Source of the DNA: Bugula neritina
Lineage: Eukaryota; Animalia; Bryozoa
NCBI GenBank assembly: GCA_964035545.1
Contig: OZ037772.1
Span: 8,797,150 to 8,861,149, forward strand
DNA length: 64,000 nucleotides
Reading direction: 5' to 3'
Below, in pieces: positions 3,012 to 58,239 of this stretch. Both the position numbers and the translations under genes were made by a program. The notes under the pieces were generated by a model that saw only the letters and a list, made by a program, of their open reading frames with translations, ran no database searches and was not told the origin of the DNA. Numbering within the stretch: the stretch's first letter is position 1; every line of letters begins with the position of its first letter.

Positions 3012-5237
3012 ACTTACTCGTTACTCGTTACATATATGCTAATGAACCACTTTAATGTTTTCTGCTAATCATGAATCTTTTTTTCATAAAAATATTTCAC
3101 TCTTTGTAAATCCTGTCATATAACTTCTGCCTACTAATATGCTAAATTCTGACTTGAGTTGCTTAACCACACTATAGCTTCTCCCATTTGTGACTGTACA
3201 TCACACAAGGTTGCTGGTTTAGTGCATTCTTTAATTTTTCTTTTTTTGTTATATATATAGAGCTAACTATATATATTTTTTGTAAATTTTCAATGGGACT
3301 TATACATATTTTTAGAATTGGTTGTCATCCCAAGTTGTGCCATTGAAGATCAGTCATCAAACACAGTTTATCAGCCTGTACCACATTCATTGATAAAGAA
3401 AATTGAAAAGTAAGATAACAGTCTAATTTTTGTCTTTTTTTGCTAAGTAAAACTAAAATTCATAATTACAAAGCAGAAATGATTATATTATATGCTGATA
3501 AAAAATAATTACTCATAAATTTAGGTTTTGATCATAATATAATATATATAGGCTTCAGAATGTACAAATTTGACCTGTGTTTTACTTTTATAAGTTTTTC
3601 AAATGTTATAATTCTACAATATATTAGAGAAATAGTTGTAAATTTTGTTCTCAGATTTTTTATATGATTATGGTTATGCATTTTGCAAAACATTTTTGTC
3701 ATTATTTATGAAACTTTCCTCATTTTTATGGCAAAACATATTCGCCAGCTATTACAAATATTTTACAGGCTTTGCGATGATTTTGGCATAAATTTTGCTA
3801 CCATTGAACAATCAGCTATAGACTGGAGAAAAGTTTTAGTCTTTGGAAAAAAGGTGTTGAATATTGAGCCTAATCTTCGTGTTTTTCACGAATCTGATTC
3901 TGATTCAAGGAGATTTGAAATTACCTTAAAAAACAGTGATCATCCGTTTACTTTCAACACCCTTGGCTGGGAAAACATATTAAGTTTCAGAAAACGTAAG
4001 CTAGAAAGGCCTAATTTGTGGCAAGAGCCACCTTTTGACCACACCATCTGTGAAATCTTTCTGATTCTTCAACGAACACACAGATATACACAATCACCAT
4101 TGATGGATGTGTTTGCAGTTGCACCTGCACATTTACTTTTCAACAACAAGCAAAAAGTGGAAGGTCAACATGCTGATGACTTTTATATGAAAAAAATGTC
4201 AGAAGCAGAAAACAACCATGCGCAGCCTCAATCTCCAGTGATACCAAACTCTTTAAATGCAAGCCATGTGCACACTAATAGATTTGTGGATCCTGTAAAT
4301 GTACCTAGGCCTAGTGAAAGTAACCAAACTAATGTGGGTTCACAAAGAATTACAGCTGAAACAGACAGTGAAAATGAAGATCAATCACAGATTTCAAAAC
4401 TAAGAAGAGAAGTAGAAAGCCGGTCTACAAAACAAGGTTATTTCCTGAAATCTGAGAGGTTTCCATACTGCTATGCTGAACTCGAAAATCCTCCATTTTT
4501 AAGTTATCGTTACAGATATTACAATCTTTCATCAAGAATGTCTCCATCAGAGACGCTGTCCTTATTCTGTTGTCCAGAATTGAAGTGTCGCTCATCTGAA
4601 TCTATTTATTGCCCTCACAGGTTTATAAATGATGTAGCACTACTTCCAGTTAACCACAAAATTGCTTTTTGTTTTTACAAAATGATAGAGGAAAACAATA
4701 AGAAATGTCTTTCCGAAAATTCAGAAGTTATAGATGACTCACAAAATCGACAAATATCAACAGAACTTAAAGAAATTAAAACAGAAGAAGAGCTGAGACT
4801 ACTGAATGGTAAAAACGTCATGATCAAAGGAATGCATGGAACAATTATCTTTAAATGGCTCAGAACTTCTCAGGAGCACGTTTATGGCGCACATATAACT
4901 TTCACCTTGACACAAACCTATACACAAACACAAACAGATCATCATAGAAACACAGTGTAAGCTTTGTTTTTATTTCAGCTTATGACAGCATGCTATTCAA
5001 TTATGAAATCATAGTATATAGTCAAGTATGCTCAGCAAAAGAAGTAGTGATCAAGAGAATCTGATTTTTTGTTTCACCTAATATAATTCTTTTTAGCTAA
5101 TTATTTAATTTCAAGAAACATACATAATATATCAACACAGGAAAAAATCAGTATTTGGTTCCGTACAGTTGTGACTGTCAGAATACAATCTCGGGGTTTA
5201 TTTGTTTTTAGGAAACTGACATTTGGCGATTGTGGGT

Positions 5238-58239: not shown

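Follow-up and report, generated by a model that had tools for sequence, protein, structure and literature searches.

The three tandem genes, paralogs A, B and C, of the Bugula neritina window (the whole 64-kb stretch of DNA analysed in this study) are likely members of a bryozoan NAL1-like family with a predicted chymotrypsin fold. B and C are probably active intracellular His-Asp-Cys proteases that arose by a Ser-to-Cys switch within a cellular family, and A has been cut by a retrotransposon.

Gene structures and predicted active sites

Each paralog was modelled with a small exon, a large exon and a last exon (Table 1). All introns of these models are of the GT-AG type, and the large exon is predicted to join the last exon in phase 2 in all three genes, upstream of the nucleophile motif. 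The spliced models have one open frame per gene, of 528 (A), 480 (B) and 475 aa (C) over the listed exons, with the last exon of A taken in its two pieces. This agrees with an earlier note on this DNA, in which the large open reading frames of three paralogs were proposed to continue in phase 2 into a final exon. Exons of paralog A upstream of 3316 were not found within the window.

The predicted catalytic residues follow in the order His (codons at 4130 in A, 29686 in B and 56078 in C), Asp (4631, 30181 and 56444) and Cys (5231, 30921 and 57949), the last being encoded by TGT in every case, and the motifs GMLVG and VYQAIV are found downstream in the three paralogs; on the order of the residues, the TGT codon and both motifs the earlier note was correct as well. 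The distance of about 106 aa that it had given between Asp and Cys is exact for C (106), but not for A (115) or B (95). From His to Asp the distances are 167, 165 and 122 aa in A, B and C, respectively.

The dN/dS ratios of the three paralog pairs range from 0.30 to 0.37, with upper 95% bounds of at most 0.50, and those of the last exons from 0.27 to 0.31. Such low values, together with annotated bryozoan proteins that span the same junction, indicate that the exon structure is not due to chance. In the read run X1, introns were covered and exon joints were not, and therefore this run behaves as DNA and is silent on splicing.

Table 1. Positions of the predicted exons and other features in the window
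Feature	Position	Strand	Remarks
Paralog A, small exon with YQP motif	3316..3409	+	GT-AG, open frame; homologous to C 55256-55349
Paralog A, large exon	3769..4956	+	Predicted: NAL1-like alpha/beta accessory domain, greater part of protease domain
Paralog A, last exon, 5' piece	5212..5237	+	KLTFGDCG; ends in first TGGGT copy
BEL/Pao LTR retrotransposon inside last exon of A	5238..13993	-	Pfam Peptidase_A17, DUF5641, DUF1759
Paralog A, last exon, 3' piece	13999..14279	+	GMLVG, VYQAIV, stop; starts after second TGGGT (13994-13998)
Decayed copy of NRF-gene first exon, downstream of A	16739-16853
Paralog B, predicted first coding exon	19599..19653	+	Starts MGNSDS (myristoylation-like); prediction
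Paralog B, ten predicted short phase-1 exons	20544..27698	+	Polar low-complexity N-terminal region; GT-AG, picked by eye and scan
Paralog B, small exon with YQP motif	28285..28375	+	GT-AG, open frame
Paralog B, large exon	29322..30446	+	GT-AG, open frame
Paralog B, last exon	30902..31130	+	PGDCGT; same junction spanned by B. neritina model P0008
Paralog C, predicted first coding exon	34999..35059	+	Starts MGNLNS (myristoylation-like); prediction
Paralog C, predicted short phase-1 exons	35625..54391	+	Partly duplicated; six used, more candidates exist
Ty3/gypsy-type LTR element in predicted C intron	42360-49058		LTR pair 100% over 211 bp
Second Ty3/gypsy-type LTR element in predicted C intron	about 49348-53740		LTR pair 99.6% over 552 bp
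Paralog C, small exon with YQP motif	55256..55349	+	GT-AG, open frame
Paralog C, large exon	55717..56742	+	GT-AG, open frame
Paralog C, last exon	57930..58239	+	FGDCGS; GT-AG, open frame
NRF-domain (NRF-6-like) gene, downstream of C	60923-64000		Hydrophobic first exon

Disruption of paralog A and other features of the locus

Paralog A is broken in this sequence by a young BEL/Pao element of 8.76 kb. The LTRs of this element (5238-6018 and 13213-13993, 781 bp) are 100% identical, which suggests a recent insertion; the target duplication TGGGT flanks it on both sides, and the insertion point lies 4 nt past the Cys codon. The single final exon that had been claimed for A is thus split, and the gene reads GDCGL-stop in this assembly. 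As assembled, A cannot give a full-length protease because of this insertion. The dN/dS ratio of 0.34 (95% 0.25-0.46) between A and C indicates that A was under selection until the insertion. Two long ORFs of the element, 8605-12405 and 6092-8632, lie on the minus strand and overlap in different frames.

A and C are derived from one segmental duplication, in which the first part of the NRF-domain gene downstream was duplicated as well. The three multi-exon genes stand beside this gene, and the only mobile ORFs found at the locus are those of retrotransposons. The long ORF of the second Ty3/gypsy-type element has a SCAN-domain match and no reverse-transcriptase match in Pfam. Short tRNA-like stretches, possibly SINEs, were seen by eye in the introns of B (27725-27810 and 30480-30550); ARAGORN and Rfam gave no tRNA or Rfam match in the window. 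Decayed LINE-like reverse-transcriptase fragments were recognised by eye from translations of the minus strand at 492-1115 and about 39000-41150, and there was no Pfam match for 492-1112.

Relatives and conservation

When a profile of the last exons was searched against 5,493 candidates, two B. neritina models were obtained, both crossing the same junction, one of which, P0008, shares 84.5% identity with B across 110 aa. A profile of the large exon gave 58 matches at E <= 0.001 among 1.84 billion representatives, and the named proteins among the 18 looked up all come from B. neritina or Watersipora subatra. Nothing new was obtained from a third homolog search based on a broad alignment. The relatives include Cys proteins (KAF6034933, KAF6034931, KAF6033779, KAF6024827 and XP_067949544) and Ser proteins (XP_067947559, XP_067946803 and XP_067940310), and the family members of both species are annotated merely as hypothetical or uncharacterised. 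The multi-copy family that had been proposed is thus found both in the three paralogs of the window and in further bryozoan members.

Two metagenome pattern scans gave 99 and 88 matches and a scan of viral contigs gave 39, none of which was confirmed; these scans are limited by their patterns and do not imply absence. A tblastn search with P0052 gave no match in phages.

The three window proteins and relatives of at least 200 aa were aligned, giving 56 rows with little identity to one another; seven near-duplicates or truncated forms were left out. The first His is kept in every one of the 54 rows that are filled at this column, and the Asp in all but one of 55. Shortly before the Asp there is a cluster, Cys-x4-Cys-x7-Cys-x-His, whose positions are kept in 51/51, 48/52, 50/53 and 50/54 rows and which is a putative structural zinc site. 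The second His (CPH) was weighed as an alternative catalytic residue and rejected, being less conserved (50/54) and situated within this cluster, five residues before the Asp.

The nucleophile column of the alignment holds 43 gaps, 8 C, 4 S and 1 R. The motif G-x-[CS]-G is present in seven C and the four S rows; the remaining C row and the R row are probably misaligned fragment ends, and the short models P0008 and P0010 contribute two further Cys. The nucleophile residue is therefore visible in 13 sequences only, all with Cys (A, B, C, P0007-P0010, P0052 and P0070) or Ser (P0034, P0038, P0051 and P0054, i.e., three Watersipora proteins and one further record). Cys is found in both genera, Bugula and Watersipora (P0052). 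The conservation of His, Asp and Cys in relatives, on which the earlier note had staked its reading, was therefore observed for His and Asp almost throughout, with Cys in nine sequences and Ser in four.

A last conserved Phe is reached by 41 partial or exon-sized relatives, 35 of which end within 16 residues of it, the pattern that one intron shared by the whole family, lying before the nucleophile exon, would produce. In P0038, a Ser member, the gene call passes through the nucleophile motif without an intron, so that either the gene is intronless there or the record is transcript-derived.

Predicted fold

Folds were predicted with AlphaFold, using alignments, for two Cys relatives and not for the window proteins themselves: P0007 (pLDDT 82.8), which is 40-45% identical to A, B and C, and the more distant P0052 (pLDDT 79.7). 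The top PDB match of both models in Foldseek was rice NAL1 (E 5.1e-7 for P0007 and 7.8e-7 for P0052). With VIA-align against 48,161 chains, the P0052 model matched NAL1 at Z 16.2 (rmsd 5.5, 292 aligned), followed by L5 protease (12.3), HtrA3 (11.8) and FAM111A (11.7); for P0007, compared among Foldseek's 1,000 best, NAL1 scored Z 14.9 and the best other chain, HtrA1, 12.6. The best 50 matches listed for the two models are all chymotrypsin-fold chains (Z 9.9-16.2), and no viral protease is among them. The best viral structure (BFVD) was matched at E 7.1e-5 (TMq 0.24), and Seneca Valley virus 3C ranked 11th in Foldseek at E 7.5e-4, compared with 5.1e-7 for NAL1.

Residues 55-441 of the P0052 model align to NAL1 residues 87-461. 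Since the accessory domain of NAL1 extends over 89-172 and its protease domain, with the triad H234/D291/S385, over 184-458 (PMC12012508, in part), this match spans both domains. The models hence predict for the family the double beta-barrel fold of clan PA, in keeping with the chymotrypsin fold that had been read from motifs, and in front of it a small alpha/beta domain matching the accessory domain of NAL1 in the alignment. In the P0007 model, strand 102-109 is followed by His112, Asp266 is at the start of strand 265-272, and Cys378 lies ahead of strand 381-386, in blocks with pLDDT of 87-95; these are the usual positions of trypsin-fold triads in the secondary structure.

The look-alikes found in the ESM Atlas are cellular, falling in mollusc, ascomycete and bacterial clusters, and serve as leads only; Nal1_C occurs in 16-27% of the members of some of these clusters, and Trypsin or S64 in a minority (S64 in 15% of one cluster). 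Pfam scans of the family gave no trypsin, S64 or NAL1 match, although the Pfam set may lack PF25819, and searches of PDB sequences with three profiles returned chance matches only.

Predicted N-terminal exons of B and C

The N-terminal exon chains of B and C were chosen by eye and scan. Of the ATG-initiated exon candidates in the window that end at a phase-1 donor (51 plus-strand, 58 minus-strand), two match MGxxx[ST]; both belong to the plus strand, and they lie upstream of B and of C, respectively. The MGxxxS starts are features of predicted exons; they are myristoylation-like and were not seen in annotated full-length relatives. With the predicted N-termini included, full open GT-AG models of 724 aa (B) and 666 aa (C) were obtained. 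No hydrophobic segment was found in them, the highest 19-residue hydropathy being 1.16 in B and 1.09 in C. The N-terminal region of C contains duplicated exon-intron blocks at 35414-42337 and 53744-54391 (72-84% identity), and a comparable pair of exons is found in B, at 23570 and 24749.

Other members of the family carry different N-termini, namely ankyrin repeats in P0009 (KAF6034931) and P0022 (KAF6034198) and a GBP-type domain in the Ser member P0051 (XP_067940310). When the ankyrin- and GBP-bearing relatives were searched against the window with tblastn, the protease region alone was matched.

Proposed activity

If B and C are proteases, the His would activate the Cys thiol, which would attack the peptide bond and form a thioester acyl-enzyme; the GDCG backbone would serve as the oxyanion hole, and the Cys-Cys-Cys-His cluster would bind a structural zinc. 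Both enzymes would be cytosolic, possibly membrane-tethered, and the variable N-termini (disordered MGxxxS regions in B and C, ankyrin or GBP-type parts in relatives) may localise or trigger the enzyme and regulate it as NAL1's own N-terminus does. The outcome could be selective cleavage within a pathway of signalling or defence, a role with which the tandem duplication, the variety of fusions and the loss of A would be compatible. Trypsin-like serine proteases have been linked to prokaryotic immune sensors in a preprint (PMC12642450, in part), which is used here as an analogy only.

The strongest competing explanation is a scaffold without catalytic activity. The Cys members would then be pseudo-proteases or otherwise non-proteolytic, with the fold kept for binding, metal coordination or other acyl transfer. 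In favour of this, catalysis by the Cys members is a prediction, the insertions between His and Asp are long, and the nearby Cys-rich cluster could recruit the Cys. Moreover, nucleophile swaps are usually very costly: an unaided exchange of Ser and Cys typically reduces activity more than 10^4-fold, although about a dozen mutations can be enough to accommodate a swap (PMC4576821, in part). A dead scaffold would, however, hardly account for the near-invariance of His and Asp across the radiation, for the G-x-C-G frame that is intact in 9/9 Cys sequences with the motif, or for a nucleophile position that holds, in the 13 sequences, only the two usable nucleophiles. We therefore regard this explanation as rather unlikely and prefer active His-Asp-Cys proteases in B and C.

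Origin of the cysteine and remaining explanations

All trees were built without an outgroup root. In an 11-row tree of the motif-bearing proteins, Cys and Ser were split on one branch (70/90), i.e., by one change. A quick 56-row tree gave two changes, with the Ser-bearing P0051 nested among Cys rows; when the Cys rows of this set were forced together, the likelihood was higher and a single clade was not rejected (p-AU 0.54). A careful 51-row tree, from which five short or long-branched rows were left out, again required a single change (93/88; 94% of bootstraps); its Cys side comprises 41 rows, in seven of which the residue is visible. Repeated gain of Cys or its reversion within the family, rather than one old event, with the activity proposed above retained, would suit the nesting of P0051 in the quick tree, and a single base can separate Ser and Cys codons; given the one change in the careful trees and the higher likelihood of the constrained tree, this is a possibility to which we give little weight. 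The trees favour a single Ser-to-Cys switch, common to both genera, which would be older than the split of Bugula and Watersipora. Because the named structural relatives are Ser proteases, Ser was presumably the ancestral residue. The independent Ser-to-Cys switch, one of two origins offered by the earlier note, is therefore supported, with Ser members in the same family.

It is very unlikely that splicing to the last exons departs from the models, or that the cluster is silent. Disruption of A would agree with this, and the Bugula models, which AUGUSTUS predicted with the help of transcriptome hints, are not direct proof (PMC7576161, in part). However, purifying selection acts on the last exons, the same regions are joined in models made independently for two genera, and P0038 has both regions in one unspliced gene call.

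The other proposed origin, an RNA-virus 3C/2A-type protease captured long ago and followed by intron gain, is barely credible in spite of the GDCG motif and the viral proteases that appear in fold searches, since the closest structures found in these searches are cellular and NAL1-like, NAL1 scores better and covers the accessory N-terminal domain too, bryozoan proteins of the same family keep Ser, and the Atlas look-alikes are cellular, some with Nal1_C.

More tentatively, the single old switch in a NAL1-like gene could have been followed by a radiation in bryozoans, with 41 of the 51 tree rows on the Cys side, into a large family of cytosolic, partly membrane-anchored, sensor-coupled trypsin-fold Cys proteases, which would serve caspase-like immune or cell-death signalling by 3C-type chemistry and whose Ser sisters would record the transition. 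This wider scenario is possible, and we would put it at less than even.

Significance and comparison with known systems

According to the cited parts of PMC6524800 and PMC4576821, the cysteine families of clan PA are viral and the cellular members are serine enzymes. An animal family that has both Cys and Ser paralogs, under purifying selection and present in two bryozoan genera, would be an exception to this pattern. Such a family would also offer a natural test of a nucleophile swap without loss of function, which has so far been probed by laboratory evolution of TEV protease, and it would extend NAL1-like proteases into animals; the ankyrin and GBP fusions hint at signalling or defence. In the literature searched, which covered few subscription journals and no supplements, no description was found of the bryozoan family or of a cellular clan PA cysteine protease.

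The closest known system is rice NAL1 (NARROW LEAF 1; PDB 7y77, 8pn2 and 8has; Pfam Nal1_C, PF25819), the best structural match of both models. Like NAL1, which is intracellular, the family would combine an accessory alpha/beta domain with a double-barrel protease domain, and the order His-Asp-nucleophile is the same. The distance from Asp to the nucleophile is 92-115 aa across the bryozoan family and 94 in NAL1, whereas that from His to Asp is 84-167 aa as against 57 by the numbering of PMC12012508 (cited in part). The family differs from NAL1 in having Cys in place of Ser385, in an identity of only 9-14%, in the conserved Cys3His cluster within the longer His-to-Asp inserts, and in its N-termini. 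NAL1 itself binds ATP and forms a hexameric cage (PMC12012508).

HtrA/Deg (S1C), alpha-lytic-type proteases, FAM111A and Ssy5 (S64) are the next-best fold matches (Z 11-12.6), but they have a Ser nucleophile, the match is confined to the protease barrels and there is no Pfam match. Unlike secreted trypsin (S1A), the B and C models have no signal peptide, and GDCG[ST] stands instead of GDSGGP. The ankyrin repeats of KAF6034931 and the GBP domain of XP_067940310 are absent from the window genes.

With the viral 3C/2A, 3CL and NIa proteases (MEROPS clan PA families C3, C4, C30 and C37) the family would share the chymotrypsin fold, and it shares the Cys in G-x-C-G; the chemistry would be that of the viral 3C-type cysteine proteases. 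In contrast to the viral 3C/2A enzymes, the window genes are spliced and nuclear, have Ser-bearing sister paralogs, lack a polyprotein context and carry the predicted extra NAL1-like domain, and the viral structural match is weaker than that to NAL1. The family is therefore neither a member of the viral families, having no viral context, nor NAL1 proper, given its Cys and the low identity. It is likely to work like a 3C-type cysteine protease and to be built like NAL1.
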